From a virus (lineage: Duplodnaviria; Heunggongvirae; Uroviricota; Caudoviricetes), in the IMG/VR virus record IMGVR_UViG_2751185961_000002: a stretch of 6,455 nt of DNA. One strand, written 5' to 3'. A program made the translations under genes and the position numbers. Shown here one piece after another: positions 88 to 6,455 of this stretch. The notes beneath the pieces were generated by a model, which searched no databases, had not been told where the DNA came from, and saw nothing but the letters and a program-made list of their open reading frames with translations. Numbering within the stretch: position 1 is the stretch's first letter; each line of letters begins with the position of its first letter.

Positions 88-645
88 TCAGTAAGTTGGC
101 AGCATTACCTGAACTGCTTTATTGGCATCAATTCGTACAATATGAGCCCATTCCTTCATCTGTTCAGTGATCAGGCCTTTTTTGTAAATCATCTGAATAC
201 GTTGCGACAGCGATTCTTTTCCTGCTTCATCGCCGAGCAGTTTTTTCGTGGAGATATCGAGGACTCTGCGACAAAGAATAACCACTGTGTCGTACCGCCT
301 CCTCTGTAAATCCTCTTTTGCCTCAACAAAAGTACGGTCTGCAACCGGGGGCGTATATTCTGGTGCGGTAATTTTTTTGACCACAGGATAGATCTTGCGG
401 AAACGGTACTGGCTATTTCCTGAAATCAGAATATCGAGGTCTTTTTTCTGGCTTTCCGCCATGGGACCGTGATAGTGGTCTGATGGGATTTCAACAATAG
501 CAACACCTCCTCGATGACAACTTCTGCATACAAAAGCGACGTTAAAAAAAGGTGTTTTTTCAATTTGTTTTTCGGCAAATGCCTCAATAACAGCTCGCTC
601 TTTTAAACAGTGCGGGCATGTGATATCAAAGGAGACTAAACCCAT
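88..645 (-). CDS. Hypothetical protein, 185 aa: N-terminal zinc ribbon (CPHC...CRSC) plus C-terminal DUF4145-like domain; candidate defence/exclusion moron gene
   Basis: ORF 88..717; start assigned to the ATG at 645-643 (MGLVSFDITCPHC...) because a GAGGAA Shine-Dalgarno lies 4 nt upstream on the minus strand (complement of 650-655). Two CxxC pairs about 23 aa apart. The C-terminal stretch LCRRVLDISTKKLLGDEAG...KGLITEQMKEWAHIVRIDANKAV matches my memory of the DUF4145 consensus (...aRraLE...Lg...kg.i...l.ew.d.iR..GN.aaH). Domain assignment is from memory, not a search. Confidence 0.65.
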   Translation of the reverse strand: MGLVSFDITCPHCLKERAVIEAFAEKQIEKTPFFNVAFVCRSCHRGGVAIVEIPSDHYHGPMAESQKKDLDILISGNSQYRFRKIYPVVKKITAPEYTPPVADRTFVEAKEDLQRRRYDTVVILCRRVLDISTKKLLGDEAGKESLSQRIQMIYKKGLITEQMKEWAHIVRIDANKAVQVMLPTY

Positions 646-889
646 GGATATTCCTCGCGAAATTAAAGAAATTAACGAAATCATTGAGGTTACTGATCGC
701 CCCGAGTTTACCCTCATGCGTCGTTATGAAACAGGAACCGACGAACAAAAATACATCATGGTTACAGCATTGGCTGTGATGGCGATAGAAAGGGAGCGAA
801 GGGAAAAGGACGTAATGGTTATTCCTGAGAGAAATGATTCACCGGATTTGAGATGGCAGGAGCCGGAGTGGGATGTGGTAATCCGGTGA
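644..889 (+). CDS. Possible small acidic protein (81 aa) of unknown function; start overlaps the divergent start of the 88..645 gene
   Basis: ATG at 644-646 preceded by AAGGAG (629-634) with 9-nt spacing; open to TGA at 887-889; sequence MDIPREIKEINEIIEVTDRPEFTLMRRYETGTDEQKY... No recognised family. May be spurious. Confidence 0.25.
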   Translation: MDIPREIKEINEIIEVTDRPEFTLMRRYETGTDEQKYIMVTALAVMAIERERREKDVMVIPERNDSPDLRWQEPEWDVVIR

Positions 890-936: not shown

Positions 937-1242
937 TTAAGCATGAGGCGAAATTTCTGCCGGGCGGTATTTTGTTGAGAGATGAGATACGTCAACTTCT
1001 CTTTCCGCTTTTTCGAGGCTCCATGCCGTCTGGAGACGAATCCATGAAGACGGAGTTCCACCCAGGACAGCAGCGAGACGAACAGCCATTTCAGGAGATA
1101 TTGTCGCATTACCTGAAACCAGTCGCTGAACAGTGGAAGGCGCGACATCAAGCGCTCTTGCCAGTTCCCTGATTCCAATATTCTGATCTTCCAGAATATC
1201 AGCAATAATTTCTCCGGGATGAGGGGGGTTAAACATCGCCAT
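937..1242 (-). CDS. higA: HigA-family antitoxin (HTH/XRE DNA-binding), 101 aa
   Basis: Sequence ...NPPHPGEIIADILEDQNIGIRELARALDVAPSTVQRLVSGNATISPEMAVRLAAVLGGTPSSWIRLQTAWSLEKAE matches the HigA addiction-module antidote signature (HPGE...helix-turn-helix...WLRLQ). Start ATG (1242-1240) overlaps the stop of the upstream toxin gene by 1 nt (TAATG). Confidence 0.85.
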   Translation of the reverse strand: MAMFNPPHPGEIIADILEDQNIGIRELARALDVAPSTVQRLVSGNATISPEMAVRLAAVLGGTPSSWIRLQTAWSLEKAEREVDVSHLSTKYRPAEISPHA

Positions 1243-1520
1243 TAGTGGTAATCCTCGTAGTTAAGAATATAAGCATCGCCGTTCCGAAACTCGAATGTGA
1301 TTCTCCAGTTACCGGAGACGGTGACAGACCATGTATCGGATCTGTCCCCCTGCAACTGGTGCAGCCTGTACCCGGCAAGGTTAATATCATCAATGATTTC
1401 AGCTTGATCTATTACCTGAAGGCGCGTTCTCAGGCGTTTAACGTGATTGGGATTTATGCCTGATGCATTTCCTGTTTCAAAGAAACGTTGAAGTCCTTTG
1501 TGTTTCCAGCTTTTTATCAT
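1242..1520 (-). CDS. higB: HigB-family toxin (RelE/ParE superfamily mRNA interferase, 'plasmid maintenance system killer'), 92 aa
   Basis: Start chosen at the internal ATG (1520-1518, MIKSWKHKGLQRFFETG...) with AGGAAA SD about 6 nt upstream. C-terminus ...GDRSDTWSVTVSGNWRITFEFRNGDAYILNYEDYH is the classic HigB motif (cf. Rts1 HigB). Toxin-first order and 1-nt overlap with higA are typical of higBA. Confidence 0.85.
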   Translation of the reverse strand: MIKSWKHKGLQRFFETGNASGINPNHVKRLRTRLQVIDQAEIIDDINLAGYRLHQLQGDRSDTWSVTVSGNWRITFEFRNGDAYILNYEDYH

Positions 1521-1583: not shown

Positions 1584-1613
1584 TTGACAAAAATAGGTAT
1601 CCGGGATTATATT
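1584..1613 (+). promoter_or_regulatory. Candidate plus-strand sigma70 promoter, divergent from the higBA promoter: -35 TTGACA (1584-1589), 18-nt spacer, -10 TATATT (1608-1613)
   Basis: Perfect -35 hexamer and 5/6 -10 hexamer; predicted start near 1620, about 80 nt upstream of an intrinsic terminator. Confidence 0.4.
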
Positions 1614-1676
1614 CACCGCACGCCAGCAAAATCTGGCGTCGGGATTAGGAACCCCGGATATTCAACCGCGACAGAC

Positions 1677-1699
1677 ACACGCCGCGAGCGTGTTTTTTA
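1677..1699 (+). terminator. Rho-independent terminator (tR2-like position, or terminator of a short leader RNA)
   Basis: Stem ACACGC (1677-1682) / GCGTGT (1688-1693), loop CGCGA, followed by TTTTTTATT. Confidence 0.55.
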
Positions 1700-1863
1700 T
1701 TGTCGTATGCACACGCACATCTGAATTATGGTGGGGCGTATGGGGCAGCCGAAAGGCTGGCCGGTTGGTTGATCCGGTAGTTCCTAACCCTGTACGTCTC
1801 GCCACCCGATGATTAGGAACCTGACGGTGGTGAATGAAAAACTCATCAACCGGAGGCGTCACT

Positions 1864-2535
1864 ATGACAACTCAAGTTTCTGTTGAAACACTCTCCACGA
1901 TTACTTACAAGCAGATCCCCGTTATCACTACTGAACTTTTGGCGCACCTTTACGGCACAGAAGCTATTCGTATTCGCCAGAATCACCACGAAAACAAAGG
2001 TCGTTTCATTGAGGAAAAACACTTCTTCAAACTTGAAGGTGAAACTTTACGTGAGTTCAAGCACAGAGTAGCTTTTAACTACTCTGTGAAAATTGCCCGT
2101 AACGTTCGTTCCCTCATCCTCTGGACTGAACGCGGCGCTGCCCGTCATGCAAAAATGCTCGAAACCGATCGGGCGTGGGAGGTGTTCGAAAAACTGGAAG
2201 ACTGCTATTTCAGCCAGGGAAAAACAGCACCAACCGAACAGCAGCCGCAGATTCAGCCACAATTCACAGCCGAGGAAATCATCCTCCTTTGCTACATGCA
2301 ACTCTGGATGGAAAAAGCCCAGGACCTTAGCAAGCAGCTGTACCCCATAATGAAAGAGCTGAACTCCTCATACACGAACAAGCTGTATGACATTGCGTTT
2401 GAGACTATCTACATGGTGACGAAGAACAGAGACGCGCTACTAAGGGAGGTAACACGTCTCGACATGTCAAGTTCCGTTATCCAGCGGGCCATGCCAATGC
2501 TGAAAAGCCTGCGGGCAAGACAATTTGAATTCTGA
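1864..2535 (+). CDS. ORF6N-domain phage protein (Roi / antirepressor-like DNA-binding), 223 aa
   Basis: Start at ATG 1864 (MTTQVSVETL...) with GGAGG SD 7 nt upstream. N-terminal region IPVITTELLAHLYGTEAIRIRQNHHENKGRFIEEKHFFKLEGETLREF fits the ORF6N consensus (...LAelYgvetk.lnqnvkrN.eRF.e..fmFqLt.eE...). C-terminal half not recognised. Confidence 0.8.
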   Translation: MTTQVSVETLSTITYKQIPVITTELLAHLYGTEAIRIRQNHHENKGRFIEEKHFFKLEGETLREFKHRVAFNYSVKIARNVRSLILWTERGAARHAKMLETDRAWEVFEKLEDCYFSQGKTAPTEQQPQIQPQFTAEEIILLCYMQLWMEKAQDLSKQLYPIMKELNSSYTNKLYDIAFETIYMVTKNRDALLREVTRLDMSSSVIQRAMPMLKSLRARQFEF

Positions 2536-4058: not shown

Positions 4059-4293
4059 TATTCAGCAGGTGCCTGAACGCATGGCTTTATTCAGGTCGTC
4101 TGGAAAAGCGCATGAGCAGCGTAATAGCGGAGTTCATGGCGAAGAGTATATGAACAGATTATTCGAATGCTATATGAGACTGAAGCACGGAGATCGCTAT
4201 GACCTGACATGTGATGCTGACGGCTTCTACTGCCGTGAAGTTGTGAAACGAATGTTTGAAGTGTGGTGTCATTGTAAAGGATGGGGGCTGTGA
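4051..4293 (+). CDS. Small Cys-rich protein, 80 aa, unknown function; possibly a Q-related zinc-binding module
   Basis: ATG 4051 overlaps the ninH stop (ATGCGTGA); MRDIQQVPER...CYMRLKHGDRYDLTCDADGFYCREVVKRMFEVWCHCKGWGL. The N-terminus MRDIQxVxER resembles, from memory only, the start of the short 933W/DLP12-type Q antiterminators. Unverified. Confidence 0.5.
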   Translation: MRDIQQVPERMALFRSSGKAHEQRNSGVHGEEYMNRLFECYMRLKHGDRYDLTCDADGFYCREVVKRMFEVWCHCKGWGL

Positions 4294-4907
4294 TGCGGCT
4301 AACCCCAGTATTCGGCATGGTTAACTTTATTAATGATGCTCATTTCCGCCGCATATGGAGGCATCCGAAGAAAATCATTAACTCTCGTCAGAAAGCATGG
4401 GTTCACTACATGCTACAGGTATGGGGAAATGTTAACGCTGGTGATGATTCTCCTTGTGGTGCAATTAACGTTATTGGGCGACTGATGATTCGCAGTCAGT
4501 GGAGCGATGACAAAGCTAAGCAGATTGAGTCTGTTGTCATGCGTCTGTATGAAGAAGACGGACTACGTGGAGATGAACTCCATCAGAAAGCCCGAGAACT
4601 GGTCATCCCTCAGTCATCGGCAGGTAATATCATTGCTCTCGCCAAAGAATCCGATGATGCTGCTTTCGTTGAACGTGTGATGGTTGAGACCTTTCATCGT
4701 GAAAGCCCTGTCCGTGATGTAGCTATTAGGCGATATTGCAATCGCGACAGCACGCAAGATATCGCCAGGATGATTTCTCAGATAACAGGAGTTGATATTC
4801 AGTATTGCCGGAGGCGGGTCGTGTGGTGCGAGAGGGTCCTTGATTCAGAAATGTTTTATGCAATGAAGCGAGAATTGGAGAAAGAACTTCTAGTGATTGC
4901 TGGATGA
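4293..4907 (+). CDS. 204-aa protein in the Q (late antiterminator) position; function assigned by synteny only
   Basis: ATG 4293 overlaps the upstream TGA (TGATG) and follows a GGGGG SD-like run. Last gene before the candidate pR'-tR' unit, which is where Q sits in lambdoid phages. The sequence does not resemble lambda Q as I recall it, so the family is unassigned. Confidence 0.5.
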   Translation: MRLTPVFGMVNFINDAHFRRIWRHPKKIINSRQKAWVHYMLQVWGNVNAGDDSPCGAINVIGRLMIRSQWSDDKAKQIESVVMRLYEEDGLRGDELHQKARELVIPQSSAGNIIALAKESDDAAFVERVMVETFHRESPVRDVAIRRYCNRDSTQDIARMISQITGVDIQYCRRRVVWCERVLDSEMFYAMKRELEKELLVIAG

Positions 4908-4931
4908 TGCAAAATATTTTTTGTAAATGCG

Positions 4932-4960
4932 TTGCTTTCGAGAAATGAAAGTAGTATGTT
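4932..4960 (+). promoter_or_regulatory. Candidate late promoter pR': -35 TTGCTT (4932-4937), 17-nt spacer, -10 TATGTT (4955-4960)
   Basis: Position immediately downstream of the Q-position gene and about 110-130 nt upstream of a strong terminator mirrors the lambda pR'-6S RNA-tR' layout. Hexamers are only 4/6 matches. Confidence 0.35.
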
Positions 4961-5067
4961 TTGTGTATGCTCGGAGCAAAAGCGCACTGAGAAGCGAAAG
5001 AGAAATCCTGATTTACCTCGGTCGTCGATAATATTTAGGATCGGCATACTGGCTAGATTAGGTAAAG

Positions 5068-5098
5068 GCCTCGGCAGAAATGTCGGGGCTTTTTGTTT
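5068..5098 (+). terminator. tR'-like rho-independent terminator
   Basis: Stem GCCTCGGC (5068-5075) / GTCGGGGC (5082-5089), two G-U pairs, loop AGAAAT, then TTTTTGTTT. The following GCACAACAGGTAAGAGCATTGA matches my memory of the sequence just downstream of lambda tR'. Confidence 0.7.
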
Positions 5099-5171
5099 GC
5101 ACAACAGGTAAGAGCATTGAACCCGCAGACCTCGTGGAATTGGTGAAAGGTGTGCGCAGTGCTCTTATCGT

Positions 5172-5298
5172 TGTGGTGAAGCTCAATGGCGAGCTAGCAG
5201 ACAGGCGACTGTGAAAATACTAGTCATGTAGCGGATCGCCGCGCGTATTGTAATCGGCAGCGCACCGATGGGAGCTGGTTCGATTCCGGCCGCCACAA
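5172..5298 (+). ncRNA. tRNA-like element in the late leader (atypical; probably a degenerate tRNA or tRNA-derived structure, not a canonical tRNA)
   Basis: Canonical T-arm GCTGG-TTCGATT-CCGGC (5274-5290); perfect 5-bp anticodon-like stem ATCGG/CCGAT (5253-5257 / 5265-5269) with 7-nt loop CAGCGCA (no U33); acceptor-like pairing TGTAGCG (5227-5233) / CGCCACA (5291-5297) with one mismatch; no D-arm; no encoded CCA. Enclosed by a longer stem GTTGTGGTG (5170-5178) / CGCCACAAT (5291-5299). Confidence 0.35.
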
Positions 5299-5417
5299 TC
5301 CAAACTGAGCCGTAGCCTCTGGGTGTCCTGAATTCATCAGTGATAGTTACGCTGCGGCCTTCTACATACGATTTTTGTGAAAAGCGGGTGGCAAGAGGCT
5401 GCGAAATTTTTAAATAC

Positions 5418-5637
5418 CTCACAATTCCACAGCTTGATGATTGTCTGGCTGCCGGAGAATTTGTTAAAAATTACATCGCGTGGTGAATCCCCCTCAGCGG
5501 CGGGGCATCTGGCAAAGTGTATGATCCAGCGAACATGCAAATTCAGTAGCCAGGCTGAATTTACCGGGAGGCACCTGGCACCATGCGACAGACAGAAATT
5601 AGGCTATACTTCAGCCCCTCTCCGGAGGGGCTTTTCT
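5418..5637 (+). repeat. Late-leader repeat unit A (about 220 nt), ending in an intrinsic terminator
   Basis: Shares with unit C the blocks CTCACAATTC, ATTGTCTGGC, TTTGTTAAAAA, TGGTGAATCCCC...GGGGCAT, ACCGGGAGGCACC.GGCACCATGC and the terminator CAGCCCCTCTCCGGAGGGGCTTT. Terminator stem GCCCCTC (5614-5620) / GAGGGGC (5625-5631), loop TCCG, then TTTTCT. Confidence 0.6.
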
Positions 5638-5689
5638 GTGCAGGATGTATCACAGTTTCCTGAATTCTGAGTACTGTCCTGTTACTCAG

Positions 5690-5849
5690 GGTGCTATATT
5701 TTCTGACGTGATGAAAGTCTGCCGGAAGGCGGAACGTATCGGAAATGACCCAGTAGAGAAAACGTTGACTCAGATACCGATGCTGAGTTACCGGGAAACC
5801 GGCATCACATGACCGCTATCCTTCCAGGCTCGCTCCGGCGGGCCTTTTT
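5690..5849 (+). repeat. Late-leader repeat unit B (diverged or partial copy), ending in an intrinsic terminator
   Basis: CTGAGTTACCGGGAAACCGGCATCACATGACC aligns with CTGAATTTACCGGGAGGCACCTGGCACCATGCGAC of unit A. Terminator stem GGCTCGC (5827-5833) / GCGGGCC (5838-5844), same TCCG loop, then TTTTT. The 5' boundary is approximate. Confidence 0.45.
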
Positions 5850-5886
5850 ACTGCAGAAAACAGTTTTCCCGTAAAATGCCACGTTA

Positions 5887-6119
5887 CTCACAATTCAGGC
5901 TGGCGATTATTGTCTGGCCAGCGGGAAGTTTGTTAAAAAAATATGGCATGGTGAATCCCCTGTGCGGAGGGGCATATCAGCGACAGGTGTTTGGTCACAC
6001 CCCTTATCCTTTCTGGTGCGGGTTCAGGTGCTGATACTGAACTCACCGGGAGGCACCCGGCACCATGCATGAACGGTACATAGCGCTACTCTCCAGCCCC
6101 TCTCCGGAGGGGCTTTCTT
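5887..6119 (+). repeat. Late-leader repeat unit C (about 233 nt), ending in an intrinsic terminator
   Basis: Same conserved blocks as unit A. Terminator stem GCCCCTC (6096-6102) / GAGGGGC (6107-6113), loop TCCG, then TTTCTT. Confidence 0.6.
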
Positions 6120-6126
6120 GTTGGAT

Positions 6127-6156
6127 AAAAAAAAGCCCGCGCCGGGAAGCGCGGGT
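6127..6156 (-). terminator. Minus-strand rho-independent terminator, face-to-face with the unit C terminator
   Basis: A8 run (6127-6134) then hairpin GCCCGCGC (6135-6142) / GCGCGGGT (6149-6156), loop CGGGAA. Read on the minus strand this is a GC-rich hairpin followed by U8. Confidence 0.5.
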
Positions 6157-6356
6157 GGCAAGGAATAAACAACAAAACGTGAAGTGATCAATTTTCAGCT
6201 GGCGAATAATACCCGACAGTAATCACTCTGCGCAACTGTATGGTCTTTTTCGTATTGCGGGCTGTAGTCATCCTCCTGTTTCTGAACCCTTGTCCATGAC
6301 TGACGTCAGCCCGCACCTTATCTTGATTGCATACACTATCCCTGCCGGGAGGAATA

Positions 6357-6455
6357 ATGGCATTTAAACACTATGACGTGGTCAGGGCATCATCGCCGTC
6401 AGACCTCGCAGGAAAACTGACGCAAAAACTGAAGGAAGGCTGGCAACCCTATGGT
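6357..6455 (+). CDS. 5' end of a late-operon gene, probably a DUF1737-like small phage protein (continues beyond the window)
   Basis: GGGAGGAA SD then ATG 6357; MAFKHYDVVRASSPSDLAGKLTQKLKEGWQPYG... The ...L..KL.EGWQP.G motif resembles small DUF1737 proteins that precede the lysis cassette in lambdoid phages. Family assignment is from memory. Confidence 0.55.
   Translation, partial: MAFKHYDVVRASSPSDLAGKLTQKLKEGWQPYG

Follow-up and report, generated by a model that had tools for sequence, protein, structure and literature searches.

Organization of the locus

The window (the whole stretch of DNA that was analyzed, 6455 nt) covers the part of a lambdoid prophage in which a Q-like late antiterminator gene is followed by the start of the esterase/lysis genes, and between these two limits lie three tandem repeat units, here called A, B and C (Table 1). 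The Q-like gene, recognized by its PHROG profile, has no Pfam match. In a 99.9%-identical genome the gene starting at 6357 carries the RefSeq label 'SASA family carbohydrate esterase', and the gene order downstream includes DUF1737/SASA esterase, holin and lysozyme genes. The stop codon of the Q-like gene (4907) is separated from the DUF1737 start (6357) by 1449 nt, for which RefSeq annotates no CDS in the 99.9%-identical genome; five ORFs of the window in and around this interval (5377-5667, 5645-5809, 6065-6184 and, on the minus strand, 5186-5422 and 4859-5104) have no Pfam or PHROG match, in agreement with the initial annotation, which saw no convincing ORF there. Between the tR'-type terminator and unit A there is a decayed tRNA-Arg-like remnant; ARAGORN at default settings reports no tRNA gene in 5100-5340, and related prophages carry intact tRNAs (ileZ/argN/argO) at this place.

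Table 1. Features between the Q-like gene and the first gene of the late region (window coordinates)
Feature	Position	Strand	Basis
Q-like late antiterminator gene, upstream limit of the region	4281-4907	+	PHROG phrog_753 'anti-termination protein Q-like', E 3.5e-68
tR'-type intrinsic terminator, 3' of the presumed late promoter	5067-5099	+	10-bp hairpin 5067-5090, -16.7 kcal/mol
Decayed tRNA-Arg-like remnant	5227-5298	+	ARAGORN tRNA-Arg(gcg)-like fold at relaxed threshold only
Unit A, canonical STnc100-family sRNA gene	5418-5640	+	RF02076, 139.9 bits
Unit A terminator hairpin	5613-5632	+	8 bp, TCCG loop, U-run from 5633, -17.3 kcal/mol
Unit B, diverged sub-threshold STnc100 relative	5650-5853	+	RF02076, 30.0 bits, E 0.0012
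Unit B terminator hairpin	5826-5845	+	8 bp, TCCG loop, U-run 5846-5850, -15.6 kcal/mol
Unit C, canonical STnc100-family sRNA gene	5887-6122	+	RF02076, 129.8 bits
Unit C terminator hairpin	6095-6114	+	8 bp, TCCG loop, T-run, -17.3 kcal/mol
Convergent sRNA gene, EcOnc08/21/42 homologue	~6315-6128, terminator 6155-6136	-	Homology, terminator scan; 5' end uncertain
First late-region gene start: DUF1737 N-terminus, SASA-family (NanS-p-like) carbohydrate esterase	6357-6455, runs off the window	+	Pfam DUF1737, E 4.7e-12

Three units related to the STnc100 family

The search against Rfam matched all three units with the covariance model of STnc100 (RF02076), a family of small-RNA genes already known from lambda-like prophages, and the model spans each of them end to end (model positions 1-206). 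Units A and C (match limits 5448-5641 and 5917-6125) are full-length matches above the curated gathering score of 47 bits and belong to the family, whereas unit B, at 30.0 bits, falls below that score and is a relative of STnc100, not a member by the curated criterion. Pairwise comparisons give a consistent picture. Units A and C are 77% identical, with a local alignment score of 109 compared with 17.3 +/- 2.3 in dinucleotide shuffles (z = 40). Unit B shares 65-69% identity over aligned columns with the other two; its shuffle z is 7.1 (vs A) and 6.8 (vs C) with the terminator included, and 2.8 and 5.5, respectively, with the terminator excluded, the terminator hairpin being the part of unit B that is best conserved relative to A and C. 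The original description of three tandem, diverged repeat units, for which a self-alignment had been proposed as a check, is thus upheld by the covariance model and by shuffle tests for all pairings. The start of unit B, placed at about 5690 in that description, is shifted by the alignment to about 5650 (TCACAGTTTCC), and the start-to-start spacings are 232 and 237 nt. Tandem Repeats Finder did not report the array (5418-6122) because its copies are too diverged, and the covariance-model and shuffle tests were therefore used instead.

A covarying RNA fold and the question of translation

The STnc100 fold consists of a long-range helix around three hairpins, followed by a variable single-stranded stretch and then by the terminator. 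Across 20 family members, 90.4% of the cells are paired as compared with 36.9-51.0% in slid controls, and 18 pairs change on both sides; the observed values were reached in none of 500 shuffles. When one genome per species was scanned for an exact 22-mer, nine loci were obtained, a sample that is sufficient for covariation but is not a census, and the Salmonella STnc100 copies differ in the 22-mer used. The long-range helix pairs 5478-5485 with 5579-5586 in unit A and 5946-5953 with 6061-6068 in unit C, and the minimum free energy (MFE) folds of both units contain the family helices. In unit B, the corresponding strands are ACGUGAUG (5706-5713) and CAUCACAU (5803-5810); the helix is kept via two A-U for G-C exchanges, the fold in which it is enforced lies 3.7 kcal/mol above the MFE, and a CCGG-GAAA-CCGG hairpin stands in place of the GGGAGGCACCC hairpin. 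Two further elements of the family fold deserve mention, namely the CCGGGAGGCACCCGG hairpin, which is extremely conserved across genera, and an ATG within the long-range helix, which covaries with the opposite strand in that CAUGGUG/CACCAUG becomes UGUGGUG/CACCAC in Enterobacter.

Are the units nevertheless translated? In units A and C, a Shine-Dalgarno (SD)-like GGAGG precedes this ATG and, as noted initially, opens short ORFs; its spacing is N11, not N12 as first given. These ORFs (...SPSPEGL...) might make the units small-protein genes, whether as mRNAs or as dual-function RNAs, and the ribosome footprints found on several STnc100 copies of EDL933, with a ribosomal coverage value (RCV) as high as 3.2, mean that short-ORF translation is possible in some copies (PMC5331693). 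Across the 20 family members, however, the length of the ATG-initiated ORF varies from 3 to >79 amino acids, two Enterobacter copies lack the conserved ATG altogether, the only peptide stretch that the family ORFs have in common is the translated terminator hairpin, and unit B uses another frame. Moreover, both the ATG and the GGAGG are base-paired parts of the covarying fold. We therefore consider a small-protein function highly improbable; the protein-coding reading of the array was rejected on account of the non-conservation of the ORFs across the 20 members together with the blank Pfam and PHROG searches. The suspicion that conservation acts at the RNA or DNA level can accordingly be narrowed to the RNA level, given the covarying fold and the lack of ORF conservation.

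Relationship to known prophage small RNAs

What is known of the RNAs to which the units are related? The STnc100 RNAs of EHEC are Hfq-bound and were detected on Northern blots (EcOnc05, EcOnc27). Northern blotting and Hfq-CRAC are the methods behind EcOnc05, EcOnc27 and the further homologue STnc100_4, and Hfq-bound, Northern-positive relatives are known from EPEC as well. The Northern probes for EcOnc05 and EcOnc27 map within the STnc100 matches of the Sakai prophages Sp4 and Sp5, and it is the probe sequences, not the published peak coordinates, that were used to place EcOnc27. The Hfq peak coordinates of EcOnc27 in Tree et al. appear offset from the current Sakai record. Overexpression of sRNA103, which corresponds to EcOnc27, has led only to reported changes in fimZ and espA. 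In EDL933, transcriptome reads cover 11 of the 11 annotated STnc100 copies, one of which was confirmed by Northern blotting (PMC5331693), and RpoD and RpoN ChIP-exo binding patterns are reported for the STnc100 copies of Salmonella (PMC10794520). The units share with these RNAs the fold, the UCCG-loop terminator (a feature of the E. coli copies), the site between PR'/moron and the esterase gene, and the convergence with a minus-strand sRNA; unit C is 81% identical to the Sp4 copy that is detected by the EcOnc05 probe. They differ in that three tandem units, the middle one below threshold, occupy the place of one, and in that they do not follow stx or any other moron gene.

A second group of relatives is formed by PasD1 and PasD2 of EPEC E2348/69 (EcOnc13 in EHEC), for which a relationship to, and common ancestry with, STnc100 has been proposed (bioRxiv 10.64898/2026.05.13.724894). 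They too score below the RF02076 threshold (41.4 and 37.7 bits). Both are sRNAs that depend on Hfq and whose ends have been mapped, and Hfq-dependent chimeras of PasD with many different mRNAs have been reported. What PasD and the units have in common is the 5' helix strand (GCAUGGUGAAUCC), the first of the hairpins and a GGGAGG block. By contrast, PasD has a 3' half of its own, with its own seed (CCUUGUGAGUUCUGG) and terminator, and the 3' halves do not align with the units.

Unit B as a putative third RNA type

Five other loci have a sub-threshold match of the unit B type in the corresponding position, their B units scoring 24.7-30.1 bits, and unit B is present in 673 of 5426 complete E. coli genomes. 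Its two alleles differ by compensatory changes in the first hairpin while the body is almost invariant; likewise, the extended -10 element TGcTATATT (5692-5700) is invariant, whereas the DNA upstream of it diverges. To judge by the sequences of these alleles, unit B looks functional, its conservation pattern being that of a functional RNA gene. Could it simply be PasD? This was ruled out, as unit B is only 56-57% identical to PasD and lacks the PasD seed; the place where the window comes closest to this seed lies outside the units and differs from it at 4 of 15 positions. Because of the missing seed and the low identity, unit B is better regarded as a separate, diverged branch. In the literature searched, neither the diverged middle unit nor the constant arrangement of three copies appears to have been described. 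Standard annotation overlooks this third, diverged type; ~12% of complete E. coli genomes carry it in a fixed place, with a canonical copy on either side.

A convergent small RNA gene on the minus strand

The array faces a minus-strand gene homologous to EcOnc08/21/42, so that plus- and minus-strand sRNA genes converge between PR'/moron and the downstream ORF. It shares 87% identity with E2348C_1409.E2348C_1408.IGR, a candidate sRNA of EPEC, and the EcOnc08/21/42 Northern probe matches window positions 6205-6239 at 31 of 35 positions (4 mismatches). The 5' end of its RNA could lie further to the right, antisense to the start of the esterase gene. Its terminator and that of unit C stand back to back, 21 nt apart, and the whole segment 5887-6454 is colinear with Sakai Sp4 at 80% identity. 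The possibility that the partner is an anti-sRNA of the AsxR or AgvB type (RF02703, RF02702) was ruled out, as neither covariance model has a match in the window at E <= 1; the same Rfam scan does detect AsxR beside STnc100 in two other places, strain 83972 and Sp5 of Sakai.

STnc100 RNAs are encoded 3' of PR' and as a rule converge with a minus-strand sRNA. Hfq-bound convergent sRNA pairs 3' of PR' have been described in eight Sakai prophages (PMC4104026, PMC7873438), and the moron-site dyads of lambdoid prophages include AsxR/EcOnc27, AgvB/EcOnc06 and EcOnc05/EcOnc08-21 (Tree et al. 2014). Unit C together with the minus-strand RNA is colinear with the last of these dyads, that of Sp4. Two differences stand out: the partner is of the EcOnc08/21/42 type (~180-270 nt) and not a 51-60 nt anti-sRNA like AsxR or AgvB, and the plus-strand side is triplicated.

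Distribution and mosaicism

Of 5426 complete E. coli genomes, 2889 have STnc100 matches, at up to 11 places per genome; few other prophage-borne RNAs of E. coli are as widespread as those of this type. The A-B-C triple is found in ~671 of the 5426 genomes as well as in E. albertii, in loci L004-L008 and L011, and in phage PhiR5_2, and the whole triple is contained in only 5 of 339 matching phage records. The comparison of copy number suggested at the outset shows that a prophage or phage carries one, two or three units, and the number varies over this range between functional phages; one STnc100 copy lies directly behind stx2. In relatives, the Q and tRNA regions that adjoin the cassette boundary at ~5403 are unrelated. 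The cassette of three plus-strand sRNA genes and one convergent gene moves as a unit between prophages with different Q/tRNA regions. PhiR5_2, a deposited phage genome whose host is given as K-12, carries an identical array and would be a tractable system for studying both the function of the RNAs and the role of the terminators in late-gene control.

Candidate promoters and 5' ends

How do the individual RNAs arise? A consensus promoter scan of 4800-6455 found no plus-strand promoter, so that the candidates proposed here all lie below consensus. For unit A, the putative -10 elements are TAAATA (5411-5416) and TGtTAAAAA (5462-5470), for unit C TAAAAT (5872-5877) and TGtTAAAAA (5931-5939); that of unit B is the near-consensus extended -10 named above. 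For unit A, the elements were placed by homology to the mapped PasD 5' end and by the Northern sizes of EcOnc05 and EcOnc27. RNA-seq places the 5' ends of PasD1 and PasD2 on the base that opens the long-range helix, immediately 3' of the conserved TTAAAAAAT block. Northern sizes of homologues fall into two classes, 173-187 nt (PasD, EcOnc06, EcOnc13) and 222-247 nt (EcOnc05, EcOnc27), which makes the 5' ends of the units ambiguous, and the long forms could come from processed read-through or late transcripts.

The initial annotation had considered a series of small RNAs released from the late transcript. The small RNAs themselves are well founded, since STnc100 is an sRNA family with Hfq-bound homologues seen on Northern blots; their release from the late transcript is the less likely part. 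In its full form this reading holds that the units have no promoters at all and are cut from PR' or other read-through transcripts, to be stabilized by their 3' hairpins in the style of 3'-UTR-derived sRNAs. The blank promoter scan would fit with it, as would the 222-247 nt sizes, which put the 5' ends of EcOnc05 and EcOnc27 close behind the upstream gene or terminator, and PasA, a published RNA, is presumed to be a processing product. Yet an intrinsic terminator precedes every unit (tR', the previous unit or, in Sp4, the tRNA-operon terminator), and in spite of it the homologues are abundant without induction. Also difficult to reconcile with processing are the invariance of TGcTATATT in unit B amid diverging upstream DNA and the fixed distance between the PasD 5' ends and the conserved AT-rich block. 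Transcripts matured in this way are thus rather unlikely to account for the units; since the homologues are seen in uninduced cultures and each unit stands behind a terminator, own promoters are the simpler reading.

Terminators and the late leader

Each unit closes, as originally described, in a GC-rich hairpin of 8 bp with a TCCG loop and a T-run. The three stems contain 6 G-C pairs each and, together with the U-runs, have the makeup of intrinsic terminators, the U-runs being short or interrupted (UUUUCUGU, UUUUUACU and UUUCUUGUU). The TCCG loop, said to be the same throughout, is indeed common to the copies of the E. coli clade but is not invariant across the family. The tR' hairpin is followed by UUUUUGUUUG and does not figure in the list from the consensus terminator scan. 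The 4800-6455 interval holds 11 terminator-like sites against 1.9 +/- 1.3 in shuffles. With tR', the stretch that separates the Q-like gene from the DUF1737/esterase gene has four predicted plus-strand terminators in succession within 1.05 kb, so that the earlier count of at least four from tR' to the first late gene agrees with the hairpin scan and the folding energies. The proposed resemblance between the GGGGCAT block and the hairpin that precedes lambda S found no support: in the Q-S region of lambda (NC_001416 43800-45600), Rfam gives no STnc100 match at E <= 1, and for the 12-mer block TGGTGAATCCCC this region offers only a chance-level match with 3 mismatches, inside the Q gene.

It is tempting to see in this stack the selected function, i.e. 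insulation that makes the esterase/lysis genes strictly Q-dependent, with the RNA bodies being incidental. The stack is real, all four terminators lie in the interval from the Q-like gene to the first late gene, and the hairpin is what unit B has best preserved in common with A and C. Insulation, however, would not explain why RNA bodies of 150-230 nt are conserved in their entirety and with covariation, why that of unit B is nearly invariant between alleles, or why homologues accumulate as stable Hfq-bound RNAs. Furthermore, a single unit suffices in functional Stx phages while others carry two or three, and the cassette travels independently of the Q/PR' type, being found with unrelated Q regions. 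Selection for a terminator stack as such is, in our opinion, quite unlikely, and its role in making late expression dependent on antitermination is probably incidental.

A probable small RNA cassette at the moron site

The repeats can be explained by known biology. Most likely, 5418-6122 comprises three paralogous sRNA genes of the STnc100/PasD superfamily, the terminators of which would be read through by Q-modified polymerase, the terminator stack being a by-product. The array and the minus-strand sRNA gene together make up an sRNA cassette of the kind present in many lambdoid prophages at the 'moron' site, which is situated between the late promoter/tR' and the esterase/lysis genes. Homologous RNAs occur as discrete, Hfq-binding species of 170-250 nt in uninduced lysogens. 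By extension, each unit would be transcribed in the lysogen from its own sigma-70 promoter, using an AT-rich -10 just 5' of CTCACAATTC, an extended -10 (TGnTAAAAA/TGcTATATT) 6-8 nt before the first helix, or both. Each transcript would end at its own UCCG-loop terminator, whose hairpin and U-tail would provide the Hfq-binding 3' end, and the single-stranded segments, in which A, B and C diverge, may direct the three RNAs to different targets. Upon induction, Q-modified RNA polymerase coming from PR' would pass tR' and the three sRNA terminators to reach the esterase/lysis genes. The packing of terminated sRNA genes into the late leader would thereby create the four-terminator stack, which may add some insulation at most without being the selected function.

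Could the conserved core instead work in cis, acting on polymerase or on the late mRNA, for instance in processing, stability or antitermination? The constant position 3' of PR' and 5' of the esterase/lysis genes in many prophages and the conservation of the CCGGGAGGCACCCGG hairpin across genera would be in line with such a late-operon element. On the other hand, the elements are closed by terminators and give rise to separate Hfq-bound RNAs, cryptic prophages have retained copies of them, chimeras of the relative PasD involve many targets in trans, and the cassette is not tied to one Q type, all of which leaves a cis-acting role with very little probability.

Among sRNA modes of action other than that of a base-pairing scaffold, the nearly invariant STnc100 core, i.e. 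the AUG-holding long-range helix and the CCGGGAGGCACCCGG hairpin with its SD-like GGAGG, might conceivably serve as a structured decoy that binds the ribosome, its 30S subunit or some other protein. In that case, the dose would be increased by tandem arrays, and unit B, with its GNRA-closed hairpin and without the in-helix AUG, would be a distinct, undescribed sRNA between two decoys; we regard this idea as a long shot. Both the ribosome footprints in EDL933 and the fact that no target has been confirmed in more than 10 years are compatible with it.

Returning to the preferred reading of three paralogous sRNA genes, two comparisons with better known systems are instructive. The first concerns the PR'-tR' 6S RNA of lambda and StxS of Stx phages, where the short PR' transcript is the sRNA itself. 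A tR'-type terminator likewise lies shortly 3' of the Q-like gene here; the three units, by contrast, are situated 3' of tR' and are unrelated in sequence, and lambda is without an STnc100-like element in its Q-S region. The second concerns OmrA/OmrB and PrrF1/PrrF2, which are adjacent, separately terminated sRNA paralogues with a common scaffold and partly different sequence. Those pairs are core-genome genes with known regulators and targets, whereas the array described here is phage-borne.

A sub-threshold STnc100 relative between two canonical units

Three plus-strand repeat units, A, B and C, lie between the Q-position gene and the start of the late genes and match STnc100 (Rfam RF02076), a family of small RNAs already described from prophages, where it is present in multiple copies. 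An Rfam scan of the whole window, with an STnc100 threshold of 47 bits, returned three matches to this family, all on the plus strand and each over model positions 1-206; the match of B is sub-threshold. Self-alignment gives 77% identity between A and C (local alignment z = 40 against dinucleotide shuffles) and 65-69% between B and either of them, with z = 7.1 against A and 6.8 against C, and 2.8 and 5.5, respectively, when the terminator is left out. The tandem diverged repeats of the initial annotation are thereby confirmed, although B is much more diverged than that word suggests and begins some 40 nt earlier than the proposed position of ~5690, since in the alignment every unit opens with (C)TCACA(A/G)TT and the starts fall at 5418, ~5650 and 5887.

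Each unit closes, as had been described, with a TCCG-loop terminator of 8 bp, six of them G-C pairs, followed by a T-rich tail; UCCG closed by C-G is a member of the UNCG class of stable tetraloops. A fourth hairpin was found where tR', the terminator behind the presumed late promoter PR', is expected, so that the count of four plus-strand terminators also stands.

Features of the window, with strand and supporting evidence
Feature	Position	Strand	Evidence
DUF4145 gene, left of toxin-antitoxin pair	88-717	-	RefSeq name, near-identical genome
HigA-family antitoxin and RelE/ParE-family (HigB-like) toxin pair	937-1242 and 1242-1520	-	RefSeq names, near-identical genome
c4-a1b1 targets	1607-1660	+	Rfam, 44.5 bits, just under threshold
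isrK	1620-1698	+	Rfam, 68.9 bits
C4 antisense RNA	1724-1809	+	Rfam, 67.5 bits
ORF6N/P22_AR_C antirepressor gene	1834-2535	+	Directly downstream of C4/isrK elements
Q-like gene	4281-4907	+	PHROG phrog_753 'anti-termination protein Q-like', E 3.5e-68
tR'-position terminator	5067-5099	+	10-bp hairpin, -16.7 kcal/mol, then UUUUUGUUUG
tRNA-Arg(gcg)-like fold	5227-5298	+	ARAGORN, relaxed threshold only
Unit A, Rfam match	5448-5641	+	139.9 bits, E 8.7e-32
Unit A, terminator hairpin	5613-5632	+	-17.3 kcal/mol
Unit B, Rfam match	5677-5852	+	30.0 bits, E 0.0012 (below threshold)
Unit B, terminator hairpin	5826-5845	+	-15.6 kcal/mol
Unit C, Rfam match	5917-6125	+	129.8 bits, E 3.3e-29
Unit C, terminator hairpin	6095-6114	+	-17.3 kcal/mol
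Minus-strand terminator beside unit C	6155-6136	-	Terminator scan
Convergent sRNA, EcOnc08/21/42 type	6128-6315, possibly to about 6400	-	Homology
First late gene start	6357	+	DUF1737 N-terminus of ORF (Pfam)

Conservation of a fold rather than of a peptide

What is conserved in these units, an RNA or a short protein? An alignment was made of twenty family members, drawn from Escherichia, Shigella and Enterobacter and including both alleles of B and both copies of the EPEC relative PasD. One of them, an 888-bp contig filed as Xanthomonas pisi DSM 18956 (NZ_JPLE01000080.1), is really E. coli Stx2-phage sequence; its 99.8% identity to the stx2B-STnc100-AsxR region of Sakai Sp5 (E. coli O157:H7) marks it as almost certainly a contamination of the Xanthomonas assembly. 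Across the twenty sequences the Rfam-type fold pairs 90.4% of cells, a value that drops to 36.9-51.0% once the 3' partners are shifted by 1-3 columns; of the 31 pairs, 18 show changes on both sides in one or more sequences (seven of eight in the hairpin at alignment columns 125-151), and none of 500 shuffles reached any of the observed pairing measures. The conserved ATG, which had been noted behind GGAGG-N12 (the actual spacing is N11), sits in the 3' strand of a long-range helix (GCAUGGUG/CACCAUGC) and covaries with its helix partner, reading UGUGGUG/CACCAC in Enterobacter and GUGAUG/CAUCAC in B. It is absent from two of the copies, and the ORF that it opens varies from 3 to over 79 codons, the sole common part being the translated terminator hairpin (...SPSPEGL...); none of the short ORFs has a Pfam or PHROG match. 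The earlier argument for RNA-level conservation therefore holds. Translation of some STnc100 copies is possible, and ribosome footprints on several EDL933 copies were reported in a RIBOseq study.

Unit B and the age of the array

Of 5426 complete E. coli genomes, 673 carry B-type units, and in 671 a query running from the A core through B into C is covered to at least 80%, so B is essentially always flanked on both sides by STnc100 units. Two B alleles exist (341 records at >=99% identity and 333 at 80-90%), which differ by heavy substitution upstream of the -10 region, while TGCTATATT and nearly the entire transcribed body are invariant; the first hairpin carries compensatory substitutions, UCUGCC/GGCGGA becoming CCUGUC/GGCAGG. 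An RNA gene that is expressed and structured would be expected to show this pattern. B lacks the GGAGG because CCGG-GAAA-CCGG replaces the family hairpin CCGGG-AGGCA-CCCGG. PasD1 and PasD2 likewise score below threshold against the STnc100 model (41.4 and 37.7 bits), and a common ancestor of PasD and STnc100 has been argued (bioRxiv 10.64898/2026.05.13.724894). An assignment of B to PasD was rejected, the PasD seed and terminator being absent and identity only 56-57%; B is a further diverged branch.

The array is old and mosaic rather than a recent duplication. The same succession of high, ~30-bit and high Rfam scores recurs in six other sequences (E. coli strains JNEC-KY204, M217, 83972 and 2013C-3033, phage PhiR5_2 and E. 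albertii), and STnc100 tandem pairs are also present in two Enterobacter species. The full triple is found in only five of 339 matching phage records, one unit being the usual number in Stx phages. Unit C (5887-6116) shares 88% identity with the first unit in the array of strain 83972 (locus L006, 2259-2485) and only about 70% with its colinear third unit, so units have recombined or been exchanged between array positions and prophages. In all relatives the left edge of the cassette lies near 5403; the DNA beyond that edge varies from locus to locus, the upstream neighbours including other Q types, a methyltransferase, tRNA genes, and TerB and DUF3927 genes.

Known homologues and the convergent partner

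Units of the A and C kind, their location and their convergent pairing are already known. EDL933 has 11 annotated STnc100 copies, all with transcriptome reads and one Northern-confirmed (PMC5331693), Stx2 phages carry one copy ~75 nt behind stx2B (PMC12370729; PMC12711010), and in eight Sakai prophages the 'moron' site downstream of PR' was found to carry Hfq-bound sRNAs arranged as convergent pairs (Tree et al., PMC4104026). The Northern probes for EcOnc05 (Sp4) and EcOnc27 (Sp5) map without mismatch inside STnc100 matches of 138 and 207.7 bits, respectively; the probe for EcOnc06 was made against the Sp17 copy and has one mismatch to the Sp4 copy of EcOnc05. Unit C is 81% identical to that Sp4 copy. 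PasD1 and PasD2 of EPEC E2348/69 are abundant, Hfq-dependent sRNAs in RIL-seq (PMC8550237), and the common motif that Pearl Mizrahi et al. report in the targets of PasD is CUCACA, the hexamer that opens units A to C; the presence of (C)TCACA(A/G) at 5418, 5650 and 5887 (+) may be coincidence.

On the opposite strand, the sequence of 6120-6360 shares 87% identity with a candidate sRNA of EPEC, E2348C_1409.E2348C_1408.IGR, equated by its authors with EHEC EcOnc08/21/42, whose probe matches 31 of 35 positions at 6205-6239. Given this homology, and given that 5887-6454 aligns colinearly with Sakai Sp4 (80% identity) through EcOnc05 and EcOnc08/21 into the esterase gene start, the right end of the array is the published convergent 'dyad'. 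A partner of the short AsxR/AgvB type was rejected, as no such Rfam match occurs in the window at E <= 1, whereas the same scan found AsxR in the partner position in strain 83972 and Sp5. The minus-strand sRNA begins with a strong hairpin (arms 6256-6270 and 6301-6315) and is antisense to the esterase gene leader; were it as long as the ~271 nt Sakai Northern species, it would also cover the esterase RBS and start codon. In prophage PP6 of EPEC E2348/69 (locus L003), the STnc100 copy beside the candidate sRNA (1621-1797) is truncated at its 5' end; an ISEc13 (IS4-like) element is found upstream, and the aligned sequence switches to ...TGTGTATAAGAGACAG.

Labelling of such copies is not new either, since one phage record already carries an Infernal/Rfam-based STnc100 label and a Bakta/Infernal run assigned others (PMC12711010). 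What seems new is limited to a third type, B, that falls below the Rfam threshold and bears the conservation signature of a functional RNA, and to its fixation in a three-unit array carried by about 12% of the complete E. coli genomes. Neither STnc100 arrays nor the B type turned up in the searchable papers, and the Pas copies are not tandem (bioRxiv 10.64898/2026.05.13.724894). For the family as a whole, the only effects reported are fimZ and espA changes when sRNA103 (EcOnc27) is overexpressed.

Setting and proposed working of the array

The window derives from a lambdoid prophage of E. coli: 4900-6455 is 99.9% identical to the JNEC-KY204 chromosome, and 5418-6128 shares 99.4% identity with PhiR5_2, a deposited phage genome. 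RefSeq annotates the identical region as NinB, NinE, DUF1364, RusA, NinH and two hypothetical proteins, then a 1.45-kb stretch without any CDS, then a SASA-family carbohydrate esterase, holin, lysozyme and lysis protein. The Q-position protein is hypothetical in RefSeq and has no Pfam match at E <= 0.01, phrog_753 being its sole match. Since this ORF is Q-like and the one at 6357 has a DUF1737 N-terminus, the initial annotation had placed the region correctly, and its reading of no convincing ORF in between agrees with the RefSeq gap and with ORFs devoid of Pfam or PHROG matches. The likeness to the hairpin upstream of lambda S was not borne out, the lambda Q-S region giving no STnc100-like match at E <= 1 and only a chance-level match to the TGGTGAATCCCC block. 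A weak PR' candidate, TTGCTT-17-TATGTT (4932-4960), can be read from the sequence only. The tRNA-like fold is probably what is left, after decay, of a tRNA cluster (ileZ/argN/argO) found downstream of Q in related prophages.

Are the RNAs released from the late transcript, or made independently? The former had been proposed as a series of small RNAs; the sRNA family is real, and each unit would instead be its own transcription unit, because a terminator precedes each (tR', the previous unit or, in Sp4, a tRNA-operon terminator). In uninduced cultures, homologous RNAs accumulate as discrete species of 173-247 nt that are bound to Hfq. Mapped PasD 5' ends coincide with the base that opens the long-range helix, 6-8 nt past a conserved TTAAAAAAT block; by homology, candidate starts would lie near 5478, 5706 and 5946, giving RNAs of ~160, 145 and 175 nt. 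Alternative starts just upstream of CTCACAATTC, where AT-rich hexamers stand (TAAATA, 5411-5416; TAAAAT, 5872-5877), would give about 215-237 nt and fit the Northern sizes of EcOnc05 and EcOnc27 (222-247 nt). No candidate promoter element of the units reaches the consensus-scan threshold. In the AT-rich block of A and C, minus-strand promoter-like hexamers, TTAACA-16-GACAAT (5467-5440 and 5936-5909), are the reverse complement of the proposed plus-strand promoter block, and a divergent or antisense promoter is possible.

The terminator hairpin and U-tail would serve as the Hfq-binding 3' end. The stretch between long-range helix and terminator, which is the seed region in PasD, is completely different among A, B and C, suggesting that the three have different targets. 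After induction, Q-modified polymerase would have to pass tR' and then the terminators of all three sRNA units before the esterase and lysis genes could be expressed; the stack seems compatible with lytic growth, since PhiR5_2 was deposited as a phage whose host is K-12. The four terminators are thus real, but strict antitermination dependence, the purpose first proposed for them, is less simple than a by-product of terminated sRNA genes in the late leader, with extra insulation as a possible consequence.

Other elements

Further upstream, the window carries a P1/P7-type C4-ant immunity module (1607-2535) within the lambdoid prophage and, on the minus strand, a toxin-antitoxin pair beside a DUF4145 gene.
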